DNA from: a virus
Lineage: Duplodnaviria > Caudoviricetes
Strand: one strand, 5' to 3'
DNA length: 63,208 nt
IMG/VR virus record: IMGVR_UViG_3300017700_000880
Span: 1 to 63,208 of that record
The notes under the pieces were generated by a model. That model worked only from the letters and a program-made list of their open reading frames with translations, had not been told where the DNA came from and did no database searches. The translations under genes were made by a program, and so were the position numbers. Shown one piece after another: positions 17,609-39,195 of this stretch. Numbering within the stretch: position 1 is the first letter of the stretch; the number at the start of each line of letters is the position of its first letter.

Positions 17609-17900
17609 CCGGCGGCGATGCGGTAGGGTGCGGGTCGGATATGGCCTGTTCGACATCGCTTAACTCCATGAAATGATTACAGAATGAGCCGCGATGCGGT
17701 AGGGTGCCGATACCCGAGGGAAGAGCCGTTAGGGGAAGGCACACGCGCAGTCGATTCCGTTGTCGGTTGTTATTGTTCGACATCCTTCCACATCCTTCAA
17801 CATCTTCTATAAAAGAATAAATAGAACAGTGAGTTAGGCGATGCCGAACGATGCGGTAAGATTCTGAACTGTGCAATTCACCCCTCTCGGGTGGTTGACA
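17609..17900. other. Non-coding repeat and AT-rich region; candidate origin or pac site
   Basis: gcgatgcggtagggtgc at 17615 and 17691, partial at 17849; tandem acatccttc; AT-rich 17805-17830. Confidence 0.5.
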
Positions 17901-17987
17901 TCCGCGCGCCAGCACGAGCATCGTCCACACGCGCGCGCGTGCGCGAGGAGTCGCGGCAACGCATTGCCGTTACAGGAGAACAGGGCA

Positions 17988-18716
17988 ATGGCGAGCAAAC
18001 GTAACGACGAGGGCATGCAAGCGGACGCGGTACAGGCCAGCGATGCCGATGGCGGGTCATGGGGCGGCCGGGACCAAGAGGTGGAGGGCGGCGAGGTGGA
18101 CGAATTCGACGCCGATGCGCCGCGCCCGAGTCGGGCGGTGCCGGCCCCGAACTACCAAGCGGTCGCCAAGGCCACGCAACACGCCAACGCCATTACGCCG
18201 GAAGAGCAAAACCAATTCCTCATCCTGTACGCCGAGACCGGCCAGTGGAATCAGTCGGCCTATCGCATCGGTCGAAGCGGTCGCGCCTTCCGCACGCTGT
18301 GCCAAATCGAGCCCGGTTTTTGTTTGCTGGTACAGGAGGCCCTGCAAGACTGGCGCGAGCGCATCACTGGCGAGATTGTTCGGCGCGGCTTCATCGGTGT
18401 GCTCAAGCCCGTGTTCGGTTCACAAGGCAAGGACGTTGGCAACGGGCAGGTCGGTGTGATTCGCGAGTACAGCGACCGCTTGCTCGAATTGGAAGCGAAG
18501 GCGGTGTATCCTGAAAAGTATCGGGAGCAATACGCGCCTCCGCAAAACCCCGCAGGCGTGGACGCAAGCGGCGAGGCGTCGTATGGTGTCGTTCAGGTGC
18601 CGGCCCCAATGGTCGACGAGGCGGAATGGGAGAGGGTCTATGGGGCTGCTGCAGCGGGACGACTTACTCGAAAAGTTACGCGACCAGTTGGCGCACGCGC
18701 TCCAGACAAAAAGTAA
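17988..18716 (+). CDS. terS: Terminase small subunit
   Basis: RRG..GVLKPVF..REYSDRLL...PEKYRE; upstream of terL; RBS AGGAG. Confidence 0.8.
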   Translation: MASKRNDEGMQADAVQASDADGGSWGGRDQEVEGGEVDEFDADAPRPSRAVPAPNYQAVAKATQHANAITPEEQNQFLILYAETGQWNQSAYRIGRSGRAFRTLCQIEPGFCLLVQEALQDWRERITGEIVRRGFIGVLKPVFGSQGKDVGNGQVGVIREYSDRLLELEAKAVYPEKYREQYAPPQNPAGVDASGEASYGVVQVPAPMVDEAEWERVYGAAAAGRLTRKVTRPVGARAPDKK

Positions 18717-18904: not shown

Positions 18905-20461
18905 ATGGCCATCTACGACCCCTTTAACCCCGCGCACTTCGCCGTTGTGCAAGAGCCCCTTGAGTACGGGCAAGGCTCAGCGACGACCAAGGTGCAAATG
19001 CTCGCGGCCGATGGCTCGGGGCGCGCGGTTATTTGGGACGCACAGAAGGGCGGTCAGCAGGCATTCTTTACGAAACTGATTTGGGAGGTGCTGCTCGAAG
19101 GCAACCGAGGCGGCGGCAAGACCGACGTCTTGCTCATGGACTTCTTCATTTCGGTGAACAAAGGATTCGGCCGAGCATGGAAGGGCCTGCTGCTGCGGCG
19201 CACGTTCCCCGAGTTGCGCGACGTCATCGACAAGTCGATGATTTGGTTCCCGCGCGTGTGCCCCGGTGCACGATACAATCAATCGACCTATACGTGGCAC
19301 TTCCCTCAAGGCGAGACGCTTCGATTCGCATACGCGCAAGCGCCAAAGGATTATTACAACTACCATGGCCACGCCTATCCGTGGATTGCGTGGGAGGAGT
19401 TGACGACGTGGCCTGATGACAAGCTGTACAAAATGTTCATGTCGCTCAACCGCTCCTCGCGCGCGGACATGCCTCGCCGATACTGTGCAACGACGAATCC
19501 GTTCGGCGTTGGTCACTCATGGGTGAAGGACCGATTCCGCTTGCCGGCGATGAAGGGCAAGGTCATCAAGGACTCGATGACGGACGATGGAAAGCTGGAG
19601 CGCCCGCGCATCGCTATCCATTGCGACTTGTTCGACAACGAGGTGCTCATGACCGCCGAGCCTGAGTACGTCACCACGCTCAGCATGTCGGCCGACTCGC
19701 CAGCACGGCAGCAGGCGTGGGTGGCAGGCTCATGGGATATCGTTGCCGGCGGCATGTTTAGCGACGTGTGGAATCCGAAGGTCAACGTGCTGCCCGACTT
19801 CATGCCGCCGAAGGATTGGTACATCGACAAGGCATACGACGACGGGTCGAGCGCGCCGTTCTCGGTCGGCTGGTACGCCGAATCGAATGGCGAGGAGCTA
19901 GTGCTCCCCGGCGGCATCGTAAAGCAAACGATTCGCGGCGACCTGTTCCGCTTTAAGGAGTGGTACGGCTGGAACGGCAAGCGCAACGAGGGCCTCGGAC
20001 TGACCAGCAGCGAAATCTCCTCGGGTATAATCGAGCGCGAATTGTCGTGGGGCATTTACGGCCGCGCGCGGTGCGGGCCGGCGGATAGCGCCATTTTCTC
20101 GAACGAGCACGGCATCAACTTCAGCGACGAATTCAAAAAGCCGGTCCAAATCAATGGCAAGTGGTACCGAGGGCAAGACTGGCAAAAGGCCGACAAGGCA
20201 CCCGGCTCACGCAAGGCGGGATGGAGGCAAATCCGCGCGATGCTGAAACAGGCACAGCCCATCAAGGGCCGGCGCACTAAGCCGGGGCTGTTTATCTGCG
20301 AGGGTTGCGTCCAATGGCTGAACACGGTACCAATACTGCCACGTTCCGAAAAGGAGCCCGACGACGTCGAGCACCCCGAGGACCACGCTGGCGATGAGAC
20401 GCGGTATCGCTTGCATAACCCGCCGCAGCATTGGCGGCAATCGCGCAAGGCGGGAGAGTGA
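18905..20461 (+). CDS. terL: Terminase large subunit
   Basis: GNRGGGKT, LRRTFPEL, WEELT, TTNPFGVGHSW, DHAGDETRY. Confidence 0.95.
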   Translation: MAIYDPFNPAHFAVVQEPLEYGQGSATTKVQMLAADGSGRAVIWDAQKGGQQAFFTKLIWEVLLEGNRGGGKTDVLLMDFFISVNKGFGRAWKGLLLRRTFPELRDVIDKSMIWFPRVCPGARYNQSTYTWHFPQGETLRFAYAQAPKDYYNYHGHAYPWIAWEELTTWPDDKLYKMFMSLNRSSRADMPRRYCATTNPFGVGHSWVKDRFRLPAMKGKVIKDSMTDDGKLERPRIAIHCDLFDNEVLMTAEPEYVTTLSMSADSPARQQAWVAGSWDIVAGGMFSDVWNPKVNVLPDFMPPKDWYIDKAYDDGSSAPFSVGWYAESNGEELVLPGGIVKQTIRGDLFRFKEWYGWNGKRNEGLGLTSSEISSGIIERELSWGIYGRARCGPADSAIFSNEHGINFSDEFKKPVQINGKWYRGQDWQKADKAPGSRKAGWRQIRAMLKQAQPIKGRRTKPGLFICEGCVQWLNTVPILPRSEKEPDDVEHPEDHAGDETRYRLHNPPQHWRQSRKAGE

Positions 20462-20723: not shown

Positions 20724-22286
20724 ATGGCGGCGAATCTCAGCAGCAAGCATCCGGCGTACACCGCGCGCGAGCCCGACTGGAAAATCATGCGCGATGCGTA
20801 CAGCGGTGAGCGCTGCATCAAAAAGGCCGCGCAGGAATACCTGAAGCCGACCGGCACGATGCAAGAGGACGGCATGACCGCCCCGAGCGGCACTGGTTAT
20901 CTCGCCTATGAGGCGTATCTCGGCCGCGCCGTGTATCACGAAATGGTTCGGCCCGCGCTGGAAGCGGCGCTCGGTGTGATGCACTCCAAGCCCGCCGAAA
21001 TCGAAGTACCGCCGCAACTGGAGGACATGCTCAAGTCGGCAACCTTCAACGGCGAGGACATGCAAACGCTTTTGCAGAAAACAAACGAGGCGCAGTTGCT
21101 TATGGGGCGAGTCGGGCTCATGCTCGACGTCGCGACCGGCGCAGCGGCCTCGGCACTTCCGTATATCGTCAGCTATTCGACCGAGTCGATGGGGAATTGG
21201 GATACCAGCAAGGTCGGCGACCTGCAGGGCCTTCGCACGCTCGAACTCGTGGTGCTGAACGAGACGCGCCAAGAGCGCATTCACGGGCTGGCATGGGAGC
21301 AAGTGACGCGGTACCGCATCCTCGCACTGGCCGAGCAAGTCGACGACGTTTGGCCGGGCATCAAGGCGCTCGGCAAGCAATACGTGGCCGCCGAAGTGAA
21401 GGACCGCGATGACGCCGTGCTGGCCGACTTCCGTGTGCCGCAACTGGCCGGCCGCGCGCTGGAGTCCATCCCATTCGTGTTCGTCGGCCCGCGCGACCTT
21501 GTGCCGGACCCCGACATTCCGCCGATGATGGCGCTGGCGCGCATTGCCCTTGCCATCTATCGCACCGAGGCCGACTATCGGCAGGCGCTGTACATGCAAG
21601 GGCAGGATACGCTCGTGCTCATGGGACGCCCGCCCGCCGTCCCCGGCGAAAAGGAAACGACCAAGGTCGGCGCGGGACACGTCATCGACGTGCCGCTGAA
21701 CGGCGATGCAAAGTACATCGGCGCGGAAAGCGAAGGCATCAGCGACCTGCGTACAGCGATTCAGGACGACCGCGAGGAGGCTGAACGCATCGGTGGCCAG
21801 TTGCTTACCGAGCGCGGCAACGCGGCTGAGTCCGGCGATGCGTTGCGTATCCGTGTCGCCTCACGCACGTCCACCCTCACCACCGTCGCCAAGGCCGGCG
21901 GCGTTGCGCTGGAGCAATTGCTCCGCTCCGCTGCGGTTTGGGTCGGTGCCGACCCTGAGAAGGTCAAGGTCAAGCCGAATCTGGACTTCGCTGATAACGA
22001 GGCGCTGGCACAAGACCTCGTCCAACTGATGAGCGCCAAGATGCTCGGTGCGCCCATCAGCAAAAAGTCAATCCATGATTGGATGGTCAAACGCGAATTC
22101 ACAAAGCTGACTTTCGAGGAAGAGATGGACGAAGTCGGCGGCGAGGAGCCGATGGTTGCGCCGACTCGCGGAGTCGGTGGACCGCTCGGTGCCGGCCCCG
22201 GTAATGCGCCGGCAAAGGACGACGAGAAACCGCCTGTCAAGGACAAAAAGGCGAAGCCCGCCGAGGCCAAAACCCCTCCGAAATAA
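20724..22286 (+). CDS. Portal protein (DUF4055-type)
   Basis: KHPAY..W..MRDAY.GE, IPFVFVG, AESGDALRIR; position after terL. Confidence 0.9.
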   Translation: MAANLSSKHPAYTAREPDWKIMRDAYSGERCIKKAAQEYLKPTGTMQEDGMTAPSGTGYLAYEAYLGRAVYHEMVRPALEAALGVMHSKPAEIEVPPQLEDMLKSATFNGEDMQTLLQKTNEAQLLMGRVGLMLDVATGAAASALPYIVSYSTESMGNWDTSKVGDLQGLRTLELVVLNETRQERIHGLAWEQVTRYRILALAEQVDDVWPGIKALGKQYVAAEVKDRDDAVLADFRVPQLAGRALESIPFVFVGPRDLVPDPDIPPMMALARIALAIYRTEADYRQALYMQGQDTLVLMGRPPAVPGEKETTKVGAGHVIDVPLNGDAKYIGAESEGISDLRTAIQDDREEAERIGGQLLTERGNAAESGDALRIRVASRTSTLTTVAKAGGVALEQLLRSAAVWVGADPEKVKVKPNLDFADNEALAQDLVQLMSAKMLGAPISKKSIHDWMVKREFTKLTFEEEMDEVGGEEPMVAPTRGVGGPLGAGPGNAPAKDDEKPPVKDKKAKPAEAKTPPK

Positions 22287-23966: not shown

Positions 23967-24193
23967 TTCCGAAGACCCGTTCAAAGCGCATTGCGCGCGT
24001 GCTCGAAGAGGCCGGTGAAGTCATAAAGGCCATCGGCAAGCTACAGCGATTCGGCAAAATCGCCCGCGACCCGAAGACGAAAATCAAGTACGACAACGTC
24101 GCCGACCTGCGCGCCGAGATGAAGGATTTGCGGCACGCCATCGACGAACTGGAGCGTGATTACAATGGCAACGTCAAACGAACTCCTGCGTGA
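23951..24193 (+). CDS. Second MazG-like protein
   Basis: EEAGEVIKAIGK..RFG..LRAEMKDL. Confidence 0.6.
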   Translation: MRQDLIPKTRSKRIARVLEEAGEVIKAIGKLQRFGKIARDPKTKIKYDNVADLRAEMKDLRHAIDELERDYNGNVKRTPA

Positions 24194-25295
24194 TGCGCTA
24201 GTCCGCCGGCAGATTTACCTGCAGCGGTTCAGCACAGGACTCAGCAACGACATCATCAAGGTGCTCGACGGCACCGAGGACGCGTTGCGCGCGGCGCTGG
24301 AGCGCCGGCTTGCCACTATCCTCAAGGGCGGCGTCGACTTCGGCCCCGAGACCACGGCGCGCCTCAAGGTGCTGGCCGAAATCGTTGCGCGTATCCGTGC
24401 GGCCGGCTTCGACCAAGCGACCGACATGTGGAACGACAACCTCGCCGAGGTGGCCAAGGCCGAGGCCGCGTTCATCAACAGCGCCGTTAAAGAGCACTCG
24501 CCGGTCGTGCTGGATACCGTCGTCCCCACGGCGACTCAGCTTGCGTCCATCGTGCGGTCGAAGCCTTTCGAGGGACGGCTGATGAAGGAATGGGCATCGG
24601 GGCTCGCTGATGCTGATGCTGATCGCATCATGGACGCGGTCAAAATCGGAATGACGCAAGGGCAAACGACGAACGATATCGTGCGCCGCGTGGTCGGCTC
24701 TTCGCAATTCGACGGCGCTGACGGTGTGATGGAAATTGCGCGCCGCGATGCCACGTCCATCACGCGCACCGCGACCAACTTCATCGCCAACGAAGCGCGC
24801 CAAGCGTTCAGCCAAGCCAACGACGACATCTTCAGCGAGGAGGTGTATGTGGCCACGCTCGACTCGCGCACGACCGAAGAGTGCGCGGCGCTCGATGGCA
24901 AGGTGTTCAAGATTGGCGAAGGCCCCATCCCGCCGATTCACTGGAACTGCAGGTCGACGCGCGTGCCAGCGCTCGACGGCAAACTCATCGGTAAACGCCC
25001 TGCCTCGGGTGCAACCGAGGCGGACCTTGAGGGATTGAATCAGAAGGACCGGCGCGCGATGGTCGAAAAATTGACGGGGCAAGTGCCAGCCGCGACCACG
25101 TATCAGGACTTCCTCGCAAAGCAAACCGTCGCTTTTCAAGAGGACGTTCTCGGCAAGGGCAAGGCCGCGCTATTCCGCAAAGGCGGGTTGTCGCTTGACC
25201 GATTCGTGAATCGCAATAACGAGCCGTACACGCTGGCGCAATTGCAAAAGCTGGAGCCGGCGGCGTTCAAGCGGGCCGGCCTGTCAGCGGATTAA
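24165..25295 (+). CDS. Minor head / head morphogenesis protein (Mu gpF/SPP1 gp7-like)
   Basis: ATLDSRTTEECAALDG..PPIHWNCRS. Confidence 0.9.
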   Translation: MATSNELLRDALVRRQIYLQRFSTGLSNDIIKVLDGTEDALRAALERRLATILKGGVDFGPETTARLKVLAEIVARIRAAGFDQATDMWNDNLAEVAKAEAAFINSAVKEHSPVVLDTVVPTATQLASIVRSKPFEGRLMKEWASGLADADADRIMDAVKIGMTQGQTTNDIVRRVVGSSQFDGADGVMEIARRDATSITRTATNFIANEARQAFSQANDDIFSEEVYVATLDSRTTEECAALDGKVFKIGEGPIPPIHWNCRSTRVPALDGKLIGKRPASGATEADLEGLNQKDRRAMVEKLTGQVPAATTYQDFLAKQTVAFQEDVLGKGKAALFRKGGLSLDRFVNRNNEPYTLAQLQKLEPAAFKRAGLSAD

Positions 25296-25364
25296 CCACG
25301 CTACAGATTCCGCTTGCAAAGGCGAACGGCTGTGGCAAGGTGCGCCAACGCCACGGAGATTCAC
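25292..25364 (+). promoter_or_regulatory. Putative promoter: TTAACCA half-site, GANTC, -35 TTGCAA, conserved leader
   Basis: ttaaccacgctacagattccgcttg nearly matches the minus-strand copy at 60848-60824. Confidence 0.65.
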
Positions 25365-25550
25365 ATGCCGGAAAAGAAACTAACCCGCGTCCAAAAGGCC
25401 AACGCAATGGACGCAGCATTCGATACGCTGATGCACGAGTACGGCAACGCCGCTAGATTCGAATGCGCTGAATCTGTGCGAATCGTAAAAATCGGATTGC
25501 CCGGTGACAGCAAGGCCCGCCTCTACGATATCCTCAAGGGAGCCAAGTGA
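25365..25550 (+). CDS. Hypothetical protein
   Basis: RBS ACGGAGA. Confidence 0.6.
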   Translation: MPEKKLTRVQKANAMDAAFDTLMHEYGNAARFECAESVRIVKIGLPGDSKARLYDILKGAK

Positions 25551-25963
25551 TGCCGCGCGAAACCAAAGCCGAGAAGGCTGAGCGCATCGAGCGCCTCCAC
25601 AAGCGACTCCATGCGCTCAAGTGGCCGAATTATGCGAAGCCGCAGCCGATGCCGGTCTCCGATATCATGGCGCTGTGCAAGGCCACGCCGCACGGATACC
25701 TCCGCGTCTATTTTCAGAACCGGCACACGATGGAAGTCAAAGCCGGCTGGACTAGCTCAACGCTCCATTGCCGCGATTGGCCCGAGGCGTTGCCGAAGAA
25801 CTGGCGCGAGGAGCAAAACCGGCACAGCGTGAGTCGCGATGCCGGCGAGTGTTACCTCACGCTCGAAGATGCGGCGCGCGCCATGCGATGGGAAGTCACC
25901 GAGGAGGCGGCCGAGGAATGCCGCAAGGCCGACGAGGTGCTGGCCAACTTGGGGGTCAAATGA
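25547..25963 (+). CDS. Hypothetical protein
   Basis: Overlap-coupled ORF. Confidence 0.65.
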   Translation: MMPRETKAEKAERIERLHKRLHALKWPNYAKPQPMPVSDIMALCKATPHGYLRVYFQNRHTMEVKAGWTSSTLHCRDWPEALPKNWREEQNRHSVSRDAGECYLTLEDAARAMRWEVTEEAAEECRKADEVLANLGVK

Positions 25964-26271
25964 ATCCCGAACGCGAGGCCATCCGTTACGCTGAGAAGAT
26001 TCGCATGGCGACTCGCTTCGCCAGCAACATCCTCATCGGCTGCGAGGCGCGCCTGAATACGAAGGCGGCGCACATCTTCAACGGCCGCACCGGATACATC
26101 GAGGGCGTCATGCCCGACGCGAAGCACGGCCTCACCGTGCTCGTGATGCTGGAAAGCAAACGCCGCAAGGGCGGTGTGCTCAACAGCCGGCCGGCGACCC
26201 GCACGTACTGGCCGCTCGTTGATGTGGTCATCACAGGGAAAAGGAAAACGCCATGCACACGTTCAGACTAA
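25960..26271 (+). CDS. Hypothetical protein
   Basis: ATGA coupling. Confidence 0.6.
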   Translation: MNPEREAIRYAEKIRMATRFASNILIGCEARLNTKAAHIFNGRTGYIEGVMPDAKHGLTVLVMLESKRRKGGVLNSRPATRTYWPLVDVVITGKRKTPCTRSD

Positions 26272-26432
26272 AAGAAAACGGCTCATTCTCGGTCGGATAC
26301 CACAGACGCGACGTCAATGATGCGTTCGTGTGGAGCGAATTGCTCGAAGTCCCGACCAAGTTCAAAGCCGTCATGTGGGTGAACTTCCTCAACGGCGGTT
26401 CGTCCGACATCTGGCGCGACCTCCGTGAGTAG
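26253..26432 (+). CDS. 59-aa hypothetical protein
   Basis: RBS AGGA; VNFLNGG motif; fills a gap. Confidence 0.55.
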   Translation: MHTFRLKENGSFSVGYHRRDVNDAFVWSELLEVPTKFKAVMWVNFLNGGSSDIWRDLRE

Positions 26433-26784
26433 CCTTACGCGCGAAGAGCGCCAAGCCATCTCGCGCAAACAAGACGCCGCCGCATCACGGCGCGACCAGC
26501 GCGGCGGACGATGCGCGCGGGACGACGCGCATGGCGAGTGTATGTGCCGCTCTTATCGCGCGTGGAGTATGTGCTCCGACTTCACGCCAAACCCGCCACC
26601 GCCGCCGACGCTGGAGGAGCGCGTTGAGTCGCTCGAAACCCGCGCCGATGAACTGGCCGCGCGCCTTGAGACGCTGGAGGGCGATGTGAACAAACGCCTC
26701 AACGCCTTGGAGCGCCACTCGCACAAGCCTTTCGACTTCACCGACTTGATGCGCCGGCTGACGGCGCTGGAGGATAAACGATGA
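26425..26784 (+). CDS. Hypothetical coiled-coil protein
   Basis: Cys cluster, poly-Pro, heptads. Confidence 0.6.
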   Translation: MSSLTREERQAISRKQDAAASRRDQRGGRCARDDAHGECMCRSYRAWSMCSDFTPNPPPPPTLEERVESLETRADELAARLETLEGDVNKRLNALERHSHKPFDFTDLMRRLTALEDKR

Positions 26785-27224
26785 ATCAATACGCCAAGCG
26801 TGATGCCCATAAGGAGGCATTCATGAACACGAACGGCACCCTCGCGCCGTCCTATGACTTGGTCCGCCGCGCATTCGACGCCGGATGGGCATCTCACAAG
26901 GCCGTCATCTACCAGCAACTGCTCGGCCTGTTGCCTCCCGAGCGCCATGCGGCCAGCGGCCTCATCCCGACGCCGGCACCGGTCAACGCGCGGCCGATGA
27001 AGATTGTTATCGCGCGCACAGGCCCCGAGGTTTGCCCCGGCGGCGACCGGCCGTTGCACTATGTACGCACCGAAATCGATTCCGGCGGTATGACGGTGTC
27101 GCTGGTCGACGTTAACCTCGCGGACGAATTCCCCTCTCGGGTGGATGCGATAGCCTTTGCGCTTCGCGTGAAGGAGCGGTACCCTGCTGAGACGGATTTG
27201 AACGTGGTCGAGGTTCCCCGATGA
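26781..27224 (+). CDS. Hypothetical protein
   Basis: RBS GGAGG, ATGA coupling. Confidence 0.65.
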   Translation: MNQYAKRDAHKEAFMNTNGTLAPSYDLVRRAFDAGWASHKAVIYQQLLGLLPPERHAASGLIPTPAPVNARPMKIVIARTGPEVCPGGDRPLHYVRTEIDSGGMTVSLVDVNLADEFPSRVDAIAFALRVKERYPAETDLNVVEVPR

Positions 27225-27466
27225 AGCGCTGCAAGGTTGCCACCCGCTACAAGGCCATCGTCCCGCCGCGCTGTAACAGCGGCGACCCGTGCGAGGCTTG
27301 CCTTGCCAAATGGTACAAGGCGAATCCCGCCGTGTGCGCGTACTCCGCCGAGAAGGTCATCGAGAAGGCGCTGAAGCTTTCCCGCGATTCGTGCTACGAC
27401 GCACTCGAAGCGTGGCAAGTCGGCGACTTCAAATCCATGCACGATATTTTCAATCTGGAGCGCTGA
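27221..27466 (+). CDS. Cys-rich hypothetical protein
   Basis: ATGA coupling; PRCNSGDPCEAC. Confidence 0.6.
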   Translation: MKRCKVATRYKAIVPPRCNSGDPCEACLAKWYKANPAVCAYSAEKVIEKALKLSRDSCYDALEAWQVGDFKSMHDIFNLER

Positions 27467-27469
27467 GCA

Positions 27470-27880
27470 ATGCTGACCAACGACGACATCACGTTCAACC
27501 GCCGCGCCTTCCCGATTGGCCGGCTGTGCATCTTCACCGATGCGGACAAGCCTTGCGCCACGATGCTGGTCGTGGTGCTCCAGCCCGTTGGCCTCGATTC
27601 CGACAAGGTGCCGCTGTACAAGTGCGAATACATCCGCGCATCGCGCTCGGTCGGCCGGCTGGAGCAATGCCGCGCGACTGACCTTACGCCGATTGAGCAC
27701 TTCGGATTCACCGCTTCGTTCGACGCGCGGAGCGGCATCTTGCGCCTCACCACATGCGAGGGTCGCGTGCGCGTGCAGGCCACGTACAAAAACGGCGATG
27801 AGCGCAAGTGGCAGGGCCTTCAGGCCGTTGGCGTGCATCCCGACGTCGTTGAAACCCTCGACGACCTTTACGGAGTCTAA
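27470..27880 (+). CDS. Hypothetical protein
   Basis: Tiles the island. Confidence 0.6.
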   Translation: MLTNDDITFNRRAFPIGRLCIFTDADKPCATMLVVVLQPVGLDSDKVPLYKCEYIRASRSVGRLEQCRATDLTPIEHFGFTASFDARSGILRLTTCEGRVRVQATYKNGDERKWQGLQAVGVHPDVVETLDDLYGV

Positions 27881-27883
27881 CCC

Positions 27884-28126
27884 ATGCAGGTTATTTGGAA
27901 CGCGGTCGACGTCATCCCCGGCCAGCGGCTCGGGAAGCAAAGCACCACCGAGCGGTTCATCATCGGTTATGAGGCGAGCACAAAGCCACCGCTAATGTGC
28001 ATCACCAGTCTGGAGGACGGGATGATTGTCACAACCGCCTTCGACCCCGAGAAGCTGGCGAAGTGGTTGACCGACTACCACTACCAGCCCGTCGAGTTGC
28101 TCGACCGCAAGCGGCGGCCGGCGTGA
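27884..28126 (+). CDS. Hypothetical protein
   Basis: RBS GGAG. Confidence 0.6.
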   Translation: MQVIWNAVDVIPGQRLGKQSTTERFIIGYEASTKPPLMCITSLEDGMIVTTAFDPEKLAKWLTDYHYQPVELLDRKRRPA

Positions 28127-28389
28127 TGGCAATCTTCACAGGCAACCGCCCGCTGCCCGAGCAGCCGAAGGCGAAGGCCCCGCCGCGTTGCGTGCGCGAC
28201 GGTCGCGACCTACGCACGCACATCCCTTGCTCGATGTGTTGCTGTGCGGCCGGCCAGTTGCGCGCCGCCGCGAAGCCTCTTACGTTTCCCGACCGGCCGT
28301 GCGCGCCGACGAAGCCCGCACGATTCGACTCACCCGTCCGCAACGGCGCTCCGTACTACGAGGCCGGCGCGATGACTTACAGGAGTTGA
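28126..28389 (+). CDS. Cys/Pro-rich hypothetical protein
   Basis: TGATG coupling. Confidence 0.5.
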   Translation: MAIFTGNRPLPEQPKAKAPPRCVRDGRDLRTHIPCSMCCCAAGQLRAAAKPLTFPDRPCAPTKPARFDSPVRNGAPYYEAGAMTYRS

Positions 28390-28391
28390 GC

Positions 28392-28928
28392 ATGAACCGC
28401 AGCCGACCAGTTGCCGCCGCGCTTCCTGACCGCGCGTGGTTTTGCGAATTCCATCGGTGCCATCACGGCTCCGCCGGCTGCTTGGAATGCAAGGCGGCCG
28501 ACGATGTGCCGGCGCTGGTCGTGGAGGACACGCCACCGCATCACTGGTACTGCTCGCAATGCAAGGCTGACCGCGACGATTCGATTTGCACAGCATGCGG
28601 TCGCCCGTGCGTCGCGATGGGTGCGCCCATCAGCGAAATCAAATGGGGCAGCGGTGCGCCGCGCGCCAGCGTCGTCACCGACGACATCAACCGATTCCTC
28701 AAGGACATGGCCGACGCGATTCCGAAGATGAAAATGACGGCCCTCCAGCGTGAGCACGCCAAGGCGGTGCTGCGGTTTTGCATCGCGGACGCCATCGCTG
28801 AGCGCCTGATACGGCGGCGCGACCCCGATGCGGAGCACGCCGCCGAAATGTCCCGGCGCATGATGGAGGGCGACGTGGCCGGATACCAAGCGCCGGAATT
28901 CCTTGACGCCGGTATCCCGACCGGCTAA
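28392..28928 (+). CDS. Zn-finger-like hypothetical protein
   Basis: RBS AGGAG; CEFH, CLEC, CSQC, CTAC. Confidence 0.6.
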   Translation: MNRSRPVAAALPDRAWFCEFHRCHHGSAGCLECKAADDVPALVVEDTPPHHWYCSQCKADRDDSICTACGRPCVAMGAPISEIKWGSGAPRASVVTDDINRFLKDMADAIPKMKMTALQREHAKAVLRFCIADAIAERLIRRRDPDAEHAAEMSRRMMEGDVAGYQAPEFLDAGIPTG

Positions 28929-29168
28929 CTGACCACCGCTGCGCCTGTAAGCCCCTAGCCTTTGGCGGGAATGGGACGGCGTGGCACCACTAGAACAGGC
29001 GCGACGGACGGATGTACTCCGCGCGCCCGTGAGGTACCGGCTAGGGACCGGTGCTGAATGGCGCGGCGCGCTTATCCCCTCGGGCTTTGCCCTAGCGCGC
29101 CGCGTTTTACTTCGCCCCGGCCGGGCCTTGCGGCCATTAACCAAATTTGTTAAACCTCTGCGGACGAT

Positions 29169-29205
29169 GCTGAACATGGGTTCAGCCGGCGCGCATGGCG
29201 TGCCG
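29169..29205 (+). promoter_or_regulatory. Tandem AUGG/AUG-loop hairpins in the scaffold leader
   Basis: gctgaac-ATGG-gttcagc; cggcgcgc-ATG-gcgtgccg. Confidence 0.55.
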
Positions 29206-29232
29206 CCAAATCGCACACGGAGGGACTCATAC

Positions 29233-30072
29233 ATGCTGTTGAAAATGATTATCGACCGTCTCGAAGACGTCGAGGAATCCGCGCGCCCGTTCTACGTTCA
29301 GAAGGGCGACAAGTTCGAACTGCAGGTCGAAGGCGCAAAGTCACAGGCGGACATCGACCGCCTCAATACTTCGCTGACCAAGGAGCGTGCCGACCACGCC
29401 AAGACCAAGGAGACGCTCAAGACGGCAACCGCAACGCTGACCACTTTCGAAGGGCTCGACCCCGAGGAGGTGCACGCGAAGCTCGCCGAGTACGACACGC
29501 TCAAGGCATCGGTCGGCGCAACGCCGGACGCCGCCAAGACGGCCGAACTCATCCGTGCCGGCGTCGAAGCGCAACTCAAGACCAAAACTGGTCCGCTGGA
29601 GCGCGAAATCAAAAACCTCAAGGCCGCCGCCGAATCGGCTGTGACCGAGAACGCAACGCTCAAGACGCAAATCACGTCGCGCACCATCGACGACGCGCTT
29701 CGCACGGCGGCGCTGAACGCCAAGGTCAACCCGGCGGCGCTCGATGACTTCCTTGCGGTCGGCCGCGCCAACTTCGAAGTCGCCGAAGATGGCAAGGTCA
29801 TCAGCAAGGACGGCATCGACCCGAATGCGTGGGTGACCGACCAGAAGAAGGCGCGTCCGCACTTCTGGCCTGTGGCGACCGGCGCTGGCGCGCAGGGTGC
29901 ACAGGGCGGCGACGGCAATGGCGGCCCGAATCCGTTCTCGGCCGAAGGCTGGAACGTTACGGCGCAGGGCAAGCTGGTCTCGACCGACCGCCCGGCCGCC
30001 GAGAACATGGCCAAGGCCGCCGGCACCACCATCGGCGGGCCGCGCCCGGTGCCGAAGGCAAAGGCCGCCTAA
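29233..30072 (+). CDS. Capsid scaffolding protein
   Basis: Coiled coil; PHFWP..GAGAQG..NPFS..WNVTAQG; precedes the capsid gene. Confidence 0.85.
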   Translation: MLLKMIIDRLEDVEESARPFYVQKGDKFELQVEGAKSQADIDRLNTSLTKERADHAKTKETLKTATATLTTFEGLDPEEVHAKLAEYDTLKASVGATPDAAKTAELIRAGVEAQLKTKTGPLEREIKNLKAAAESAVTENATLKTQITSRTIDDALRTAALNAKVNPAALDDFLAVGRANFEVAEDGKVISKDGIDPNAWVTDQKKARPHFWPVATGAGAQGAQGGDGNGGPNPFSAEGWNVTAQGKLVSTDRPAAENMAKAAGTTIGGPRPVPKAKAA

Positions 30073-30100
30073 GCTTCCAAGGCGGTTCGCAAACATAGAC

Positions 30101-30128
30101 GGCGGGGCCAAAAGCCCCGCCGTTATTG
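30101..30128 (+). terminator. Stem-loop after the scaffold gene
   Basis: ggcggggc-caaaa-gccccgcc then gttatt. Confidence 0.5.
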
Positions 30129-30233
30129 CGTCGTGGGGCGGTTCTCAGGCCCCGCCGGGGCGGCCAAAAGAATCTTCCGGCGCACGCTTGACGCCCTCCC
30201 CTCGGGCATAGTAAACAGGCTGCAGACGATAAC

Positions 30234-30314
30234 GATGGCATGGGCCATCACGCTGGCAATGAGCCGCGACCGTCGCATAAAGGCAAACCCGAAGACCCGG
30301 CGCACATGGTGCGC
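30234..30314 (+). promoter_or_regulatory. AUGG/AUG-loop hairpins in the capsid leader
   Basis: gatggc-ATGG-gccatc; gcgcac-ATG-gtgcgc. Confidence 0.55.
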
Positions 30315-30364
30315 AGAGGATACGGACCCGGCCTTGCACCCCATCAACGCAAAGGAGGCTCACC

Positions 30365-31390
30365 ATGGCCGTTGTTCGCATCTCGGACGTCATCGTCCCC
30401 GAAGTTTTTTCGCCCTACGCGCAGCAAATCACCGAAGAGAAGTCGGCGCTCGTGCAGAGCGGTGCGCTCGTTCGTGACGGCGCGCTCGACCAGAAGCTGG
30501 CCGGCGGCGGTCTCACGTTTCAGGTCCCCTCGTGGAAGGACCTTGCCAACGAAGAAGAGAACGTTGGCACCGACGACCCGACCGACCTGTCCTCGCCGAA
30601 GAATACCGGCAGCGGCAAGGAAATCGCCGTGCGCCTGAGCCGCAACCAGTCGTGGTCGACCATGAACTTGGCGACCGTGCTGAGCGGCGACGACCCGGCC
30701 GGTGCCATTGCCGCGCGTGTCGGCAACTACTGGACTCTCCGCATGCAGGCCGCCTATGTGGCGGCGGTGCGCGGCCTGTTCCGTAACAACGACAAGGCGT
30801 CTCCCGGTGGCGGTGCCACGCAGTACGACCTGACCAACGACATTTCGTCGACCAGCTATACGGCCGGCGTCACCGACTTCAACGCCAGCGCCTTCATCGA
30901 CGCCTGCGTTACCATGGGCGACTCGATGGGCGACCTGACCTTGGTCATGGTGCACTCGCTCGTTTACGCGCGCATGCAGAAGAACAACCTCATCGACTTC
31001 ATCCCCGATGCCGATGGCAAGGTGAACATCCCGACTTTCCTTGGCCGCCGCGTGGTCATGGACGACGGCGTGCCGTTCAACGGCGGCGTCTTCGAAACGT
31101 GGCTGTTCGGTTCCGGCGCGGTGCGCCTCGGCGTTGGTTCGCCGGAAGTGCCGACCGAGACCAAGCGTGCGCCCGATTCCGGCAACGGCTCGGGGCAGGA
31201 TACCCTGTACAACCGCGTCGAGTGGGTGCTTCACCCGACCGGCCACAAGTACGCCGGCACCCCGGCGTCCGGCGGGCCGAGCAACGCCAACTCGACGAAC
31301 AACCTCGCTCACGCCGATTCGTGGGAGCGGGTGTACCCGGAGCGCAAGCAGATTAAGATTGCGCGCCTCATCACCCGCGAATTCGCGTAA
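30365..31390 (+). CDS. Major capsid protein
   Basis: RISDVIVPEVFSPY, MVHSLVY, FLGRRVVMDD, WVLHPTG; strong RBS. Confidence 0.92.
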   Translation: MAVVRISDVIVPEVFSPYAQQITEEKSALVQSGALVRDGALDQKLAGGGLTFQVPSWKDLANEEENVGTDDPTDLSSPKNTGSGKEIAVRLSRNQSWSTMNLATVLSGDDPAGAIAARVGNYWTLRMQAAYVAAVRGLFRNNDKASPGGGATQYDLTNDISSTSYTAGVTDFNASAFIDACVTMGDSMGDLTLVMVHSLVYARMQKNNLIDFIPDADGKVNIPTFLGRRVVMDDGVPFNGGVFETWLFGSGAVRLGVGSPEVPTETKRAPDSGNGSGQDTLYNRVEWVLHPTGHKYAGTPASGGPSNANSTNNLAHADSWERVYPERKQIKIARLITREFA

Positions 31391-31418
31391 GCGAACGGCG
31401 GCAATCTGGAATGTTACC

Positions 31419-31442
31419 GGGCGGCGACTTCGGTCGCCGCCC
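31419..31442 (+). terminator. UUCG-tetraloop hairpin after the capsid gene
   Basis: gggcggcgac-TTCG-gtcgccgccc; no U tract. Confidence 0.5.
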
Positions 31443-31523
31443 AACTGGATACCAGCGCAGGCAAAGCGCAGCACATTAGCCCCGCGATGCGGGATATTTT
31501 GAACAACGAGAAGGAGAGTCCTC

Positions 31524-32051
31524 ATGTATGGTTCAACCCCGACCCGCGAGGGTGTTACCGCTCACGAGACCGGCCACGGCAAGACCCGGCGCACGGTCCT
31601 CAAGTTCGATGAAGTGGTCGTTCCGCTCATCGGCGATGCTTCGCACAGCGCGCGTCTCGCGCTCAAGGTCTACGACTTCCCCGAGGGTCTCATCACCATC
31701 AAGGGCGCGGTCGTGAACCTTTCGGCCACCGACGACACCGCTGCGGTCACCGATACGCAGGCCGGCTTCACTGGCCTCGGCACTGTTGCCGCCGCGCAGG
31801 ATGCCGACACGCTGGCGACCACGACTCAGAACCTCGCGACCACGACCGCGTTCACTGCCGTCGCTGGCGTGATTCCGGCCAAGGCCGCCGGCCCGGCCGC
31901 GCCCGTCAACTTCGACGGTACCGGTGGAGCCATCGACGTCTATCTGAACATGCTCGCCACCGCAGTCGGTACGGCGGTCGGTTCGGCGGCGACGAACCTG
32001 ACGCTCAACGGCACCATCGAAATCAATTGGGAAGAAGTCGGCGACAAGTAA
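31524..32051 (+). CDS. Putative head decoration protein
   Basis: Ala/Thr/Gly beta-rich; follows the capsid gene; RBS AAGGAG. Confidence 0.6.
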   Translation: MYGSTPTREGVTAHETGHGKTRRTVLKFDEVVVPLIGDASHSARLALKVYDFPEGLITIKGAVVNLSATDDTAAVTDTQAGFTGLGTVAAAQDADTLATTTQNLATTTAFTAVAGVIPAKAAGPAAPVNFDGTGGAIDVYLNMLATAVGTAVGSAATNLTLNGTIEINWEEVGDK

Positions 32052-32075
32052 TTCGCAGGCGCCTCAATAGCTATC

Positions 32076-32099
32076 GGGAGTCGCGGCAACGCGACTCCC
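32076..32099 (+). terminator. GNRA-tetraloop hairpin
   Basis: gggagtcgcg-GCAA-cgcgactccc. Confidence 0.5.
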
Positions 32100-32148
32100 C
32101 AATTAACCCGGCCAACGAGCCGAGCAATTCCTCAGAAGGAGGCCCGCC

Positions 32149-32994
32149 ATGCGTATCCCGTCCATGAACTATCTCCGTCATCGCACCTTTGCCCGCGTCC
32201 GCCGGTCGAAGAAGCTGATCGAATTCCTTGCCGCGCAAGACACCCGCCTCACCTCCAGCGCCAGCGCAACCACGGTCGACTCGGTCGACGTCGCGGCCAT
32301 TGCGGCGGTCGGCACCCTTACGTTCGGTGCCAACGCGCTGAACAACTCCACCGTCACGCTCGACGCGCGCGTGTACACGTACAAGGACACGCTGACCGGC
32401 GCGGCGAACGAAATTCTCGTCGGTGCCAGCGCCTCGGCTTCGCTGGACAACCTCATCTCCGCCGTTAACGGCACCGCTGGCGCTGGTACGACTTACGGCA
32501 CCGGCACCGTCGCGCATGCCACCGTCGACGCGGCGGCCGGCGCTGGCGATACGGCCACGATGACGGCGACCACCGCCGGCACCGCTGGCAACAGCATCGC
32601 AACCACGACCACCGTTGTCTCCGCCTCGTTTGGCGGCAACTCGCTGGTCGGCGGCGCGGCGGCCACCTTCGGCCCGACCTTTGCGGCGACCACGCACGGC
32701 ATCACTGACGGCGAAGGCCCTTACGTGATGACTTCCTCGAACGGCGCAGGCGGCCTCCCGGCCGGCATCGCCGCCGGGGAGTTGCTGTACGTCGCCAACG
32801 TGAGCGCTTCCGTCCTCGGGCTGGCGCGCACCCGAGAGGAGGCCATCGCCCGCGACTACATTCAAATCACGAGCGCCGGTACCGGCACCCTCACCATTAC
32901 GAAGGCCATGACCAACGCGGGAATCTTCGGTATCCTGCGCCGGCACAAGGCCCGCACCGTGGTCGCGGCGGCCGACATCGATTCGCTGAACTAA
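32149..32994 (+). CDS. Virion structural protein sharing a domain with the major tail protein
   Basis: GTLT..ANEI.VGA..S.DNLI.A.N..GNSIATTT also in 37300-39195. Confidence 0.7.
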   Translation: MRIPSMNYLRHRTFARVRRSKKLIEFLAAQDTRLTSSASATTVDSVDVAAIAAVGTLTFGANALNNSTVTLDARVYTYKDTLTGAANEILVGASASASLDNLISAVNGTAGAGTTYGTGTVAHATVDAAAGAGDTATMTATTAGTAGNSIATTTTVVSASFGGNSLVGGAAATFGPTFAATTHGITDGEGPYVMTSSNGAGGLPAGIAAGELLYVANVSASVLGLARTREEAIARDYIQITSAGTGTLTITKAMTNAGIFGILRRHKARTVVAAADIDSLN

Positions 32995-37299: not shown

Positions 37300-39195
37300 A
37301 TGGCCCTCGTAAACAAACAGGATTCCAACTTCACCGGTCTGCGTTACGCGGTCGAAGAGACGCCCGGCGTGTTGCCGACGACTCCGGTCTGGATTGAACT
37401 GGAGCCGAACTCGTACAACGACTTCGGCGGCAGCATCGAGACCAAGGCGCGCAACCCCATCAACGCATCGCGCCAGCGCAAAAAGGGCGTTATCATCGAC
37501 CTGAACGCGCAAGCCGGTTTCGTTCAGGACATCACGCCGACCAACGTGCAGGGCCTCATGGAGGCGTTCATGTTCGCCGCCACGCGCGAGAAGACGAACA
37601 TGGACAGCACCGCCGTCGACGGTACGGCGAACCATTACGTGGTCGCCAGCGGCGGCGCGGCATTCGCACCCGGCGACTTGGTCTTCGCTGAAGACTTCGA
37701 CACCACGGCGAACAACGGCCTCAAGGTCGCTGCGCCGGCTTCCACCGCGACCAACGTGCTGGTCACCGACACGGGCCTCGTCACCGAGGCCGGCGCGGAA
37801 GGCCACATCACGAAAGTCGGATACCAATTCCCCACGGGCCTCGCGTCCATCAACGCGACCGCCTCCGAATTCCCCAAGCTGGTCGCCGCCAACGTCGCCG
37901 CGACCGGTACGCTCACGCTCGGCTCGAATCCGGTTGTCGATGACGAAGTGGTCATCGGCTCGCGCACTTATCTGTTCAAGGCGAACCCGACCACGGTCGC
38001 CAATGAAGTCGAAATCGGCGCGGACGCCAGCGGCTCCATCGACAACCTCATCGCGGCCATCAACTTGGCCGCCGGCTCCGGTACGTTGTACGGCTCGGCG
38101 ACCACCATCAACCCCGACGTCACGGCTGCGGTCGGCGGCGGCGATACGATGGTCCTGACCGCCAAGGTGACCGGCGTGGTCGGCAACAGCATCGCAACGA
38201 CCACGGACGTCGCCACCTCCTCGTTCGCCAGCGCCACCTTGACCGGCGGTGCCGGCCGCGCGCTGGATACGCTCGGCCTCATCCCCGGCGAATTCGTTTA
38301 CATCGGCGGCGATGCCGGCGGCACCATGTTCGCCACGCCCGAGGACAACGGCTACTGCCGCGTCCGCTCGACCAGCGCCAACGAAATCGTCTTCGACAAG
38401 ACTCAGTTCATCATGGAAGACGATGCCGGCGCGGGCCTCACCCTGCAAATCTTCCTCGGGCATTGCCTGAAGAACGAAACCGACCGCGCCCTCATCGTTA
38501 CCAAGACGCTGCAGATGGAGCGCTCGCTCGGCGCGCCGGATGACTCGTTGCTGGCACAGGTGCAGGCCGAATACATCGTCAACTGCTTGGCCAACGAGTT
38601 GACCCTGAATATGACCACCGCCGACATCGCGGTGCTCGACGTCAGCTTCCTCGCTGGCGACAACGAAACGCGCACGGGTGCCGAAGGTCTCAAGACCGGC
38701 GACCGCCCGGCGCTGGTCGACACCGATGCGTTCAACACGGTCAGCGACTTGAGCCTCATCAAGATGGCGGTCGTTACCGATGGCGACTCGTGCCCCACGC
38801 CGCTGTTCGCCTTCCTCACCGACCTCGAACTGAGCATCAATAACAACATCACTCAGAACAAGGCGCTCGGCGTGCTCGGCTCGTTTAGCTCATCGCCTGG
38901 TACGTTCGAAGTGTCGGCCACGGTGACCGCTTACTTCCAGACCGTCGATGCCATCCGGCAGGCGCGCGCCAATGCGTCCGTCACGCTGGAGCAGCATCTG
39001 GCCAAGGCGAATCGCGGCGTGTCCATCGACTTGCCGCTGCTGACCTTGGCCAACGTCGCGGCCAACGTCGAGCAGGACGAGCCGGTTACGTTGCCCATCG
39101 AAAGCGATGCGGCGACCGCCAAGCTGATTCATCCCACGCTCGACTATACTGCGCTGTGGATGTTCTGGACTTATCTGCCGACTGCGGCGGAGTAA
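37300..39195 (+). CDS. Major tail tube protein with inserted domains
   Basis: DSNFTGLRYAVEETPGVLP..EPNSY.DFGG..RQRKKG; INNN..KALG. Confidence 0.88.
   Translation: MALVNKQDSNFTGLRYAVEETPGVLPTTPVWIELEPNSYNDFGGSIETKARNPINASRQRKKGVIIDLNAQAGFVQDITPTNVQGLMEAFMFAATREKTNMDSTAVDGTANHYVVASGGAAFAPGDLVFAEDFDTTANNGLKVAAPASTATNVLVTDTGLVTEAGAEGHITKVGYQFPTGLASINATASEFPKLVAANVAATGTLTLGSNPVVDDEVVIGSRTYLFKANPTTVANEVEIGADASGSIDNLIAAINLAAGSGTLYGSATTINPDVTAAVGGGDTMVLTAKVTGVVGNSIATTTDVATSSFASATLTGGAGRALDTLGLIPGEFVYIGGDAGGTMFATPEDNGYCRVRSTSANEIVFDKTQFIMEDDAGAGLTLQIFLGHCLKNETDRALIVTKTLQMERSLGAPDDSLLAQVQAEYIVNCLANELTLNMTTADIAVLDVSFLAGDNETRTGAEGLKTGDRPALVDTDAFNTVSDLSLIKMAVVTDGDSCPTPLFAFLTDLELSINNNITQNKALGVLGSFSSSPGTFEVSATVTAYFQTVDAIRQARANASVTLEQHLAKANRGVSIDLPLLTLANVAANVEQDEPVTLPIESDAATAKLIHPTLDYTALWMFWTYLPTAAE

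Follow-up and report, generated by a model that had tools for sequence, protein, structure and literature searches.

AUG(G)-loop hairpins in the scaffold and major head protein leaders of a tailed phage and its relatives: a candidate shared RNA operator

Control of the ratio of scaffold to capsid protein is a classic question of phage assembly, and autoregulation of the P22 scaffold has been known since the 1980s. The viral record IMGVR_UViG_3300017700_000880 (Duplodnaviria; Caudoviricetes) was analysed here over its whole stretch of 63,208 nucleotides (nt), which is called the window. In a first-pass annotation made from the letters of this DNA, two short hairpins with AUGG or AUG loops were noticed in the leader of the head scaffolding protein gene and two more in that of the major head protein (capsid) gene, and it was suggested that a shared translational control sets the scaffold to capsid ratio. 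Are these hairpins a selected RNA element, and what could they be for?

Four hairpins in two leaders

All four hairpins were present in the window sequence exactly where they had been annotated, on the plus strand. Hairpin 1a of the scaffold leader (29169-29186; GCUGAAC-AUGG-GUUCAGC, 7 base pairs (bp)) was directly abutted by hairpin 2a (29187-29205; CGGCGCGC-AUG-GCGUGCCG, 8 bp including one G.U); folded alone, they gave -8.9 kcal/mol (z -4.8) and -13.4 kcal/mol (z -3.1), respectively. The capsid leader contained hairpin 1b (30234-30249; GAUGGC-AUGG-GCCAUC, 6 bp) and hairpin 2b (30300-30314; GCGCAC-AUG-GUGCGC, 6 bp), which both gave -8.1 kcal/mol when folded alone (z -2.6 and -2.9, respectively). 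The minimum free energy (MFE) folds of wider leaders contained all four. The two scaffold-leader copies lie at -64 and -45, and together the hairpins span 28-64 nt before the ATG. The hairpins had been described as standing shortly before the ribosome-binding site (RBS), which was correct for the scaffold leader (14 nt) and incorrect for the capsid leader, where the hairpin ends 37 nt before the Shine-Dalgarno sequence. The CAUG of hairpin 2b is 60 nt upstream of the capsid ATG, which is the site of a conserved proximal hairpin in relatives.

It had also been claimed that the stems differ in sequence and still pair. This was found for hairpins 1a and 1b, in which five of six stem positions differ and all pair, and was not found for hairpins 2a and 2b, which have a common 13-nt stretch with one mismatch; the differences between these two are one compensatory change from G-C to A-U and one change from G.U to G-C.

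Such hairpins are rare in the window. Its plus strand has 433 hairpins with a stem of at least 6 bp and a loop of 3-4 nt, and the loop is ATG or ATGG in 7 of them; a C:G closing pair together with at most one G.U was seen only in the four leader hairpins. Counted from the loop, 4 of the 105 plus-strand CATGG sites cap a stem of at least 6 bp (at most one G.U), all four in the two leaders. Three hundred dinucleotide shuffles of the window gave a mean of 0.37 such hairpins and a maximum of 3, none reaching 4. When the stem threshold was relaxed to 5 bp, one further site was obtained, at 37553 within a tail gene. Among the hairpins of 10 other intergenic regions of the window or its head module, no loop started with AUG or ACG.

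The likeness of the two leaders goes beyond what the first-pass annotation had noted. Both follow the layout TTG(C/A)(G/C)G, 17-18 nt, TAAAC, 2-3 nt, the 11-mer CTGCRGACGAT, 0-3 nt and an AUGG hairpin, which spans 29128-29186 in the scaffold leader and 30188-30249 in the capsid leader. An open reading frame (ORF) of 132 codons (30240-30638) was observed to begin at the loop AUG of hairpin 1b, with the AUG of hairpin 2b in the same frame, and to run into the capsid gene in a different frame. Because open frames are long in DNA of high G+C content, this one is unlikely to code for a protein.

Conservation and covariation in relatives

No relative with a capsid more than 70% identical was found in the viral, metagenome and genome collections scanned, so that the window leaders could not be aligned base by base. 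The comparison was made with about 80 loci whose capsids are 50-70% identical; the scaffold ORF was chosen automatically, wrongly so at some loci (e.g. L016). When 95 related loci were scanned blindly for hairpins, those with ATG(G) loops, whose stems are unrelated, clustered at two places: in the scaffold leader, about 1 kb ahead of the capsid start, and 40-140 nt ahead of that start. For 80 non-identical loci, loops starting with ATG were counted in 74 of 230 leader hairpins versus 78 of 3478 elsewhere on the plus strand, and the next commonest leader loops were AGG (13) and TGG (10). CATG capped a stem of at least 4 bp at 107 of 209 sites in leaders; elsewhere it did so at 66 of 1585 sites, and on the minus strand at 58 of 1794. 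The enrichment was replicated with 34 further metagenome loci (19/60 in the capsid leader versus 20/374).

Sites chosen by position gave a similar picture. When the CATG nearest to -58 of the capsid ATG was taken, its AUG was at the apex of an MFE hairpin in 56 of 67 unique sites, as compared with 51 of 309 CATG sites within the capsid gene. Over all loci, AUGG was the commonest C:G-closed tetraloop on stems of at least 5 bp (43 unique), followed by UUCG (33).

The copies occupy preferred positions. In the capsid leader of relatives, the usual proximal copy is at -50 to -65 and a distal copy at about -90 to -125; the proximal copy often has a 2-bp apical stem, a 3' bulge of 1-2 nt and a lower stem of 4-5 bp. 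By eye, most relatives have a sigma-70-like promoter after the scaffold stop codon, with the distal hairpin about 2-12 nt past its predicted start. For the scaffold gene, ATG was at a hairpin apex for 26 of 58 distinct starts, a few of which are upstream in-frame ATGs. Examples with the start codon in the loop are TGAGAG-ATG-GCTCTCA, TAGGGC-ATG-GCCCTA and ATAGC-ATG-GCTAT, and in such cases the non-coding 5' arm covaries with codons 2-3. A hairpin no more than 120 nt upstream, mostly at -20 to -35 and adjoining the Shine-Dalgarno sequence, was found for 29 of the 58 starts, and 41 of them have either the apex ATG or the upstream hairpin.

The motif was present in an NP1-like Pseudomonas phage (PP740684), Pseudomonas phage Iggy, Stenotrophomonas phage BUCT626, Klebsiella phage K4PH164, Vibrio phage VhaS-tm, Roseobacter phage RDJL3 and Sphingomonas phage MMDA13. 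In the complete NP1-like genome, 3 of the 8 plus-strand CATG hairpins with a stem of at least 5 bp fall in these two leaders. The E. coli phages CAjan and ESCO3 have ACGG and never AUG as the loop of their leader hairpins with stems of at least 4 bp (4 and 3, respectively); in the related Klebsiella phage K4PH164, AUGG stands on a nearly identical stem. AUGA and AUGU loops also occur in relatives. These loops give the consensus A-Y-G(N), closed by a C:G pair, and the copies of one genome change together; the AUG(G) loop of the first-pass annotation describes the window and is not a strict rule. The motif was in none of four outgroup phages (Jersey, Bacillus 049ML003, Achromobacter Axy06 and Alteromonas R9Y1; capsids about 28-40% identical), in which the scaffold and capsid genes are tightly packed.

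Some peculiarities of single relatives were observed along the way. At L016 (2120-2730), the closest viral relative, an extra gene stands between scaffold and capsid, and the capsid leader keeps only the proximal CAUGG hairpin. In PP740684.1 (17167-17286; L097:2398-2517), the distal hairpin has its loop AUG annotated as the start of a 39-codon 'hypothetical protein' that overlaps the beginning of the capsid gene; the annotation is likely an artefact of the motif. In the capsid leader of ESCO3 (L106, about 1460-1480), GGCGGTAG stands just after the ACGG hairpin. This string is the core of the RfaH ops element; its occurrence was taken as chance because it is absent at the same place in CAjan.

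Pairing was assessed on an alignment of 70 position-chosen sites, across which CATG is invariant. A 5-bp tetraloop stem was named and scored for pairs against 500 shuffles. It was 68.4% paired, as compared with 59.6 ± 1.5% in shuffles, and its covariation score was 0.417 versus 0.225; in both cases 0 of 500 shuffles reached the observed value, and all slid registers were worse. The second pair of this stem (30-37) illustrates the exchange of bases, being CG in 31, UA in 21, GC in 3, GU in 3, AU in 2 and UG in 2 rows. Under a symmetric rule, G.U outnumbered A.C by 45 to 17 in leader stems versus 30 to 41 elsewhere, which indicates that pairing is selected on the plus-strand RNA. For a covariance model (R1), 63 of the 70 rows were used; the row of the window was left out, as were those of L003, L011, L062, L064, L080 and L086, which have no clear site. 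The top match of R1 in the whole window was hairpin 1a (18.4 bits, expectation value (E) about 0.1), and the information content of the model is too low for use as a search tool.

The earlier argument that varying stems under kept loops point to a selected RNA structure was borne out by this conservation and covariation in about 80 relatives, and the lack of conservation that would have spoken against it was not encountered. The element is very probably a selected, functional RNA hairpin motif. As a candidate RNA family it is new and well supported, and it might also serve as a part with which to tune the expression of phage genes.

Possible readings of the motif

What could such a motif do? 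A reading to which we give about an even chance, judging from sequence comparison, is that the hairpins are a shared post-transcriptional operator on the scaffold and capsid mRNAs, with the loop read by one putative trans-acting factor. The element is clade-wide, a short stem of free sequence under a C:G-closed A-Y-G(N) loop (core CAUGG in the window), with one to three copies per leader and only in the mRNAs of the scaffold and the major head protein, and it would act in cis. Each gene may have its own promoter, which would place the first hairpin near the mRNA 5' end. The loop would be recognised by one shared factor, for which a protein encoded in the head module of the phage is the likeliest candidate, and the initiation of translation, the lifetime of the mRNA or both would thereby be controlled jointly for the two mRNAs. 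That the loop is fixed while the stems are free suggests a reader of the loop, and the restriction of the element to two mRNAs a dedicated one. The concerted switch of the loop from U to C favours a phage-encoded rather than a host reader. The copies at or near start sites point to translation, to which a link is plausible, and mRNA stability would be a second possible output.

Precedents for parts of such control exist. In the single-stranded RNA phages MS2 and PP7, the coat protein represses the replicase gene via a translational operator. The motif resembles these operators in being a short hairpin with a sequence-specific loop, in having the start codon inside the hairpin in many relatives, and in that a structural protein could be the repressor. 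It differs in that the phages here are tailed and have double-stranded DNA, in that several copies stand in two mRNAs, and in that the start codons of the window are outside the hairpins. The scaffolding protein of P22 is reportedly autoregulated post-transcriptionally (Wyckoff and Casjens 1985), and no RNA element is known to have been defined for this. P22 was the precedent named in the first-pass annotation, and the likeness is a scaffold gene under post-transcriptional feedback; in contrast, a capsid leader with the same element has no P22 counterpart.

A more specific version of the operator reading, which we regard as speculative and rather improbable, is that unassembled scaffold (or capsid) protein binds the A-Y-G(N) loops on both mRNAs and so couples their synthesis to procapsid assembly; the two mRNAs might even be tethered for co-translational co-assembly. 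Such sensing of assembly, if real, would make the motif the first RNA operator to be defined for scaffold/capsid feedback among tailed phages with double-stranded DNA, and one that is kept in Queuovirinae-like phages whose hosts are alpha-, beta- and gammaproteobacteria. In any case, the motif is a concrete, mutable target, a hairpin of 15-20 nt with a kept loop in two mRNAs. It occurs in cultured phages, namely CAjan and ESCO3 (E. coli K-12, DH5a) and the NP1-like phages, and the natural variants AUGG and ACGG on the same stem offer a ready specificity swap.

Several observations weigh against a shared operator. Whole-leader folds were no stabler than shuffles (z -1.5, -1.2, -1.25 and -0.33), and alternative folds compete with the leader hairpins. 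The start codons of the window are outside the hairpins, the capsid-proximal hairpin being 50 nt from its start codon. Only identical leaders were removed, so the loci are not independent and shared descent inflates the counts. The alignment of 70 rows mixes triloop, tetraloop and bulged registers, for which reason RNAalifold predicted no pairs or consensus on it, and it was after this result that the named stem was scored. Model R1 picked only hairpin 1a clearly; hairpin 1b was listed 29th (9.9 bits, E 7.7) and both triloop hairpins, 2a and 2b, were missed. The concerted U-to-C switch of the loop is known from one lineage. Finally, some copies in ESCO3, VhaS-tm, L069 and L073 are followed by U-runs; they are terminator-like and could mean control at the level of transcription.

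Among other explanations, the hairpins could be purely structural elements of the 5' untranslated region, without a reader of the loop, which shield abundant mRNAs from RNase E/RppH-dependent decay and insulate the RBS. Stabilisation by 5' stem-loops is established for ompA-type leaders, and in the present phages each gene looks like its own unit of terminator, promoter, leader and gene, with the distal capsid hairpin close to the predicted transcript start in most relatives, as described above. Yet this would leave the kept loop unexplained, CAUG being invariant in the 70 position-chosen sites while the stems are free, as well as the UUCG/GNRA loops of other hairpins in the same genome and the same loop in the copies at -55 and at the scaffold start codon. 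Neither AUGG nor ACGG is known as one of the specially stable tetraloops. We consider a purely structural role rather unlikely.

Less probable still is a role in transcription, with the hairpins acting as nut/put-like RNA elements or as regulated terminators or attenuators that set the read-through at the terminators flanking the scaffold and capsid genes. Terminator-like hairpins do flank both genes, the motif hairpins stand just past promoter-like elements, the U-runs mentioned above follow A-Y-G(G) hairpins in four relatives, the linear 11-mer before hairpin 1 recalls the boxA-boxB arrangement, and hairpins 1a and 2a abut like the two put stems. However, no U-tract follows any of the four window hairpins (the downstream sequences are CGGCGCG, CCAAAUC, ACGCUGG and AGAGGAU), and a terminator scan reported none of the four. 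Copies that enclose the scaffold start codon or abut the Shine-Dalgarno sequence fit antitermination poorly, and the spacing between hairpins varies from 0 to 50 nt. Lambda nut and HK022 put resemble the motif in that leader hairpins follow a promoter, a conserved linear stretch precedes the first of them and two stems adjoin, here in the scaffold leader; the motif differs in loop type, in copies at start codons and in the want of U-tracts in the window, and no N-like protein was identified. The loops of the window are AUG(G) of 3-4 nt and no GNRA-like pentaloop was found, nor is the 11-mer CTGCRGACGAT boxA-like.

That ribosomes read the loop AUGs, as starts of short upstream ORFs or as decoy or standby sites that tune initiation, appears very unlikely. 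In one subgroup (L001, L037, L042, L048 and L050), an AGGAGG-like sequence lies 5 nt before the proximal loop AUG, and in L001 the 16-codon ORF that results ends 1 nt short of the capsid ATG; the deposited annotation of PP740684 has the 39-codon ORF begin at a loop AUG, and the AUG of hairpin 1a shares the frame of the window's scaffold gene. But every copy in CAjan and ESCO3 has ACG, which shows that the loop is not a start-codon mimic, and no Shine-Dalgarno sequence is upstream of the window loop AUGs. The ORF lengths also vary, from a stop after 6 codons in L039 to the 132 codons of the window, which run out of frame into the capsid gene. A codon in a loop of 3-4 nt could be presented only after the stem has melted, and upstream loop AUGs in frame with the gene, about 6 of 35 by hand tally, are no more frequent than by chance.

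A signal at the level of DNA is highly improbable, whether as the inverted-repeat operator of a DNA-binding regulator or as a hairpin that is extruded when the DNA is single-stranded: the repeats adjoin promoter-like elements and the CATG core is a DNA palindrome, but a DNA operator would show the reverse of free arms around a fixed centre, the repeats fall short of true palindromes (their centres being an odd 3 nt or an asymmetric 4 nt), G.U is favoured over A.C on the plus strand only, and one arm is often inside coding sequence.

Two further ideas were dropped. Kissing of the loop with CCAUGG at the capsid start is impossible in CAjan, and for a TadA or TGT substrate the loop context is unsuited.

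The motif was also compared with catalogued RNA elements. Rfam 15 gave no match at gathering score in the window and none in 20 related loci. No account of this hairpin motif was found in the literature searched, although the supplements of PMC10690425 and PMC5737381 may list an overlapping candidate; in the main text of PMC5737381, the GP20 motifs are not mentioned. These motifs, GP20-a (RF02991) and GP20-b (RF03003), are described with six further candidate RNAs upstream of 'GP20' genes in PMC10690425. They are likewise candidate cis-regulatory RNAs in presumed PF06810 scaffold leaders, derived from comparative genomics with no mechanism assigned. They differ in being structures of 107 and 72 nt, whereas the motif here is a short kept-loop hairpin, repeated, and common to the capsid leader. 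We take 'GP20' to be PF06810, formerly named Phage_GP20, and the window hairpins do stand directly upstream of a PF06810 gene (E 3.3e-10); neither GP20-a nor GP20-b, however, matched at E up to 10 in 28900-30420, and none matched in 20 related loci. CsrA/RsmA targets resemble the leaders in having two hairpin-loop sites 0-60 nt apart, one of them near the RBS, and loops that contain A-N-G-G. The defining GGA is nevertheless absent from the hairpin loops of the window, whose contexts are AUGGGU, AUGGCG, AUGGGC and AUGGUG. The alphaproteobacterial hosts of RDJL3 and MMDA13 are for the most part not known to have CsrA.

Putative transcription units and head module

Complete as a viral record, the window measures 63,208 bp, has 62% G+C and carries direct terminal repeats; its packaging and head module is encoded on the plus strand, to which all coordinates in this section refer unless stated otherwise. 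The head scaffolding protein gene (29233-30072; 279 aa) matched phrog_206 (E 2.8e-36) in addition to PF06810. Its start codon and Shine-Dalgarno sequence GGAGGG lie within 29220-29235, with the ATG at 29233 and not 29234; the PHROG alignment begins at that Met, and the N-terminus MLLKMIID resembles the MALKAVYD-type N-termini in relatives. The major head protein gene (30365-31390; 341 aa) matched phrog_247 (E 2e-104), and its Shine-Dalgarno sequence AAGGAGG and start codon lie within 30352-30367, with the ATG at 30365.

Each of the two genes is preceded by a terminator-like hairpin and a promoter-like element. Before the scaffold unit, a long hairpin followed by UUUUA was recognised by eye at 29062-29109 (CGCGGCGCGCU ... 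AGCGCGCCGCG); the terminator scan has a loop limit of 8 nt and so did not report it. A promoter-like TTGCGG-N17-TAAACC preceded by TGt was obtained by regular expression at 29128-29156 and would be the promoter of the scaffold mRNA. The first copy of the 11-mer, CTGCGGACGAT, follows at 29158-29168, matched by the pattern CTGCRGACGAT, and may be the discriminator or initial transcribed region. After the scaffold gene, the hairpin ACGGCGGGGCC-AAAA-GCCCCGCCGU (30098-30123), found by eye and by folding, is terminator-like, and the scan gave the same stem on the minus strand. The corresponding element of the capsid unit is TTGACG-N18-TAAACA (30188-30217, by regular expression), the putative capsid mRNA promoter, and the second copy of the 11-mer, CTGCAGACGAT, was located by the same pattern at 30220-30230. 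Exact matches to CTGCRGACGAT occur in the window only at 29158 and 30220; the other match listed, at 26502, has one mismatch. A pairwise MAFFT alignment was uninformative for the leaders, and their shared parts came to light through patterns and short BLAST searches.

From this arrangement of the sequence, the scaffold and capsid genes each appear to form their own transcription unit with a similar promoter, and the first hairpins, 1a and 1b, would then lie about 6 and about 11 nt into their mRNAs. A sigma-70 promoter scan of 28000-32500 gave 0 sites, and by eye the relatives have sigma-70-like promoters at the same place as the element of the capsid leader. The promoter-like element and the 11-mer may constitute a phage-specific promoter class for both head genes. 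Long G+C-rich hairpins were also seen after the capsid gene (31419-31442, UUCG loop) and after the next gene (32076-32099, GCAA loop), these canonical loops being unlike the AUG(G) loops of the leaders.

Of the other genes of the module, terS (17871-18716), terL (18905-20461), the portal gene (20724-22286) and a MuF-like head morphogenesis gene (24156-25295) lie upstream, and adaptor, tail and tape-measure genes lie downstream of the major head gene. About 3.6 kb of small ORFs (25314-28928) separate the MuF-like gene from the scaffold gene; they are without PHROG or Pfam match except phrog_28248 (function unknown), matched at 25547-25963. In most relatives, unlike the window, the scaffold gene directly follows the MuF-like or portal gene.

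Two side observations were made in the relatives. At L001 (2444-2869) and L037 (1431-1810), a permuted two-piece alpha-type transfer-messenger RNA gene stands just upstream of the scaffold leader, with RF04321 scores of 102.9 and 94.2 bits and RF01849 scores of 97.7 and 88 bits, respectively. In PP740684.1 (39283-44161; L102), a 7-deazaguanine DNA-modification cluster was recognised, with a DpdA-like transglycosylase, FolE, QueD, QueE and an amidotransferase, as is expected in Queuovirinae-like phages.

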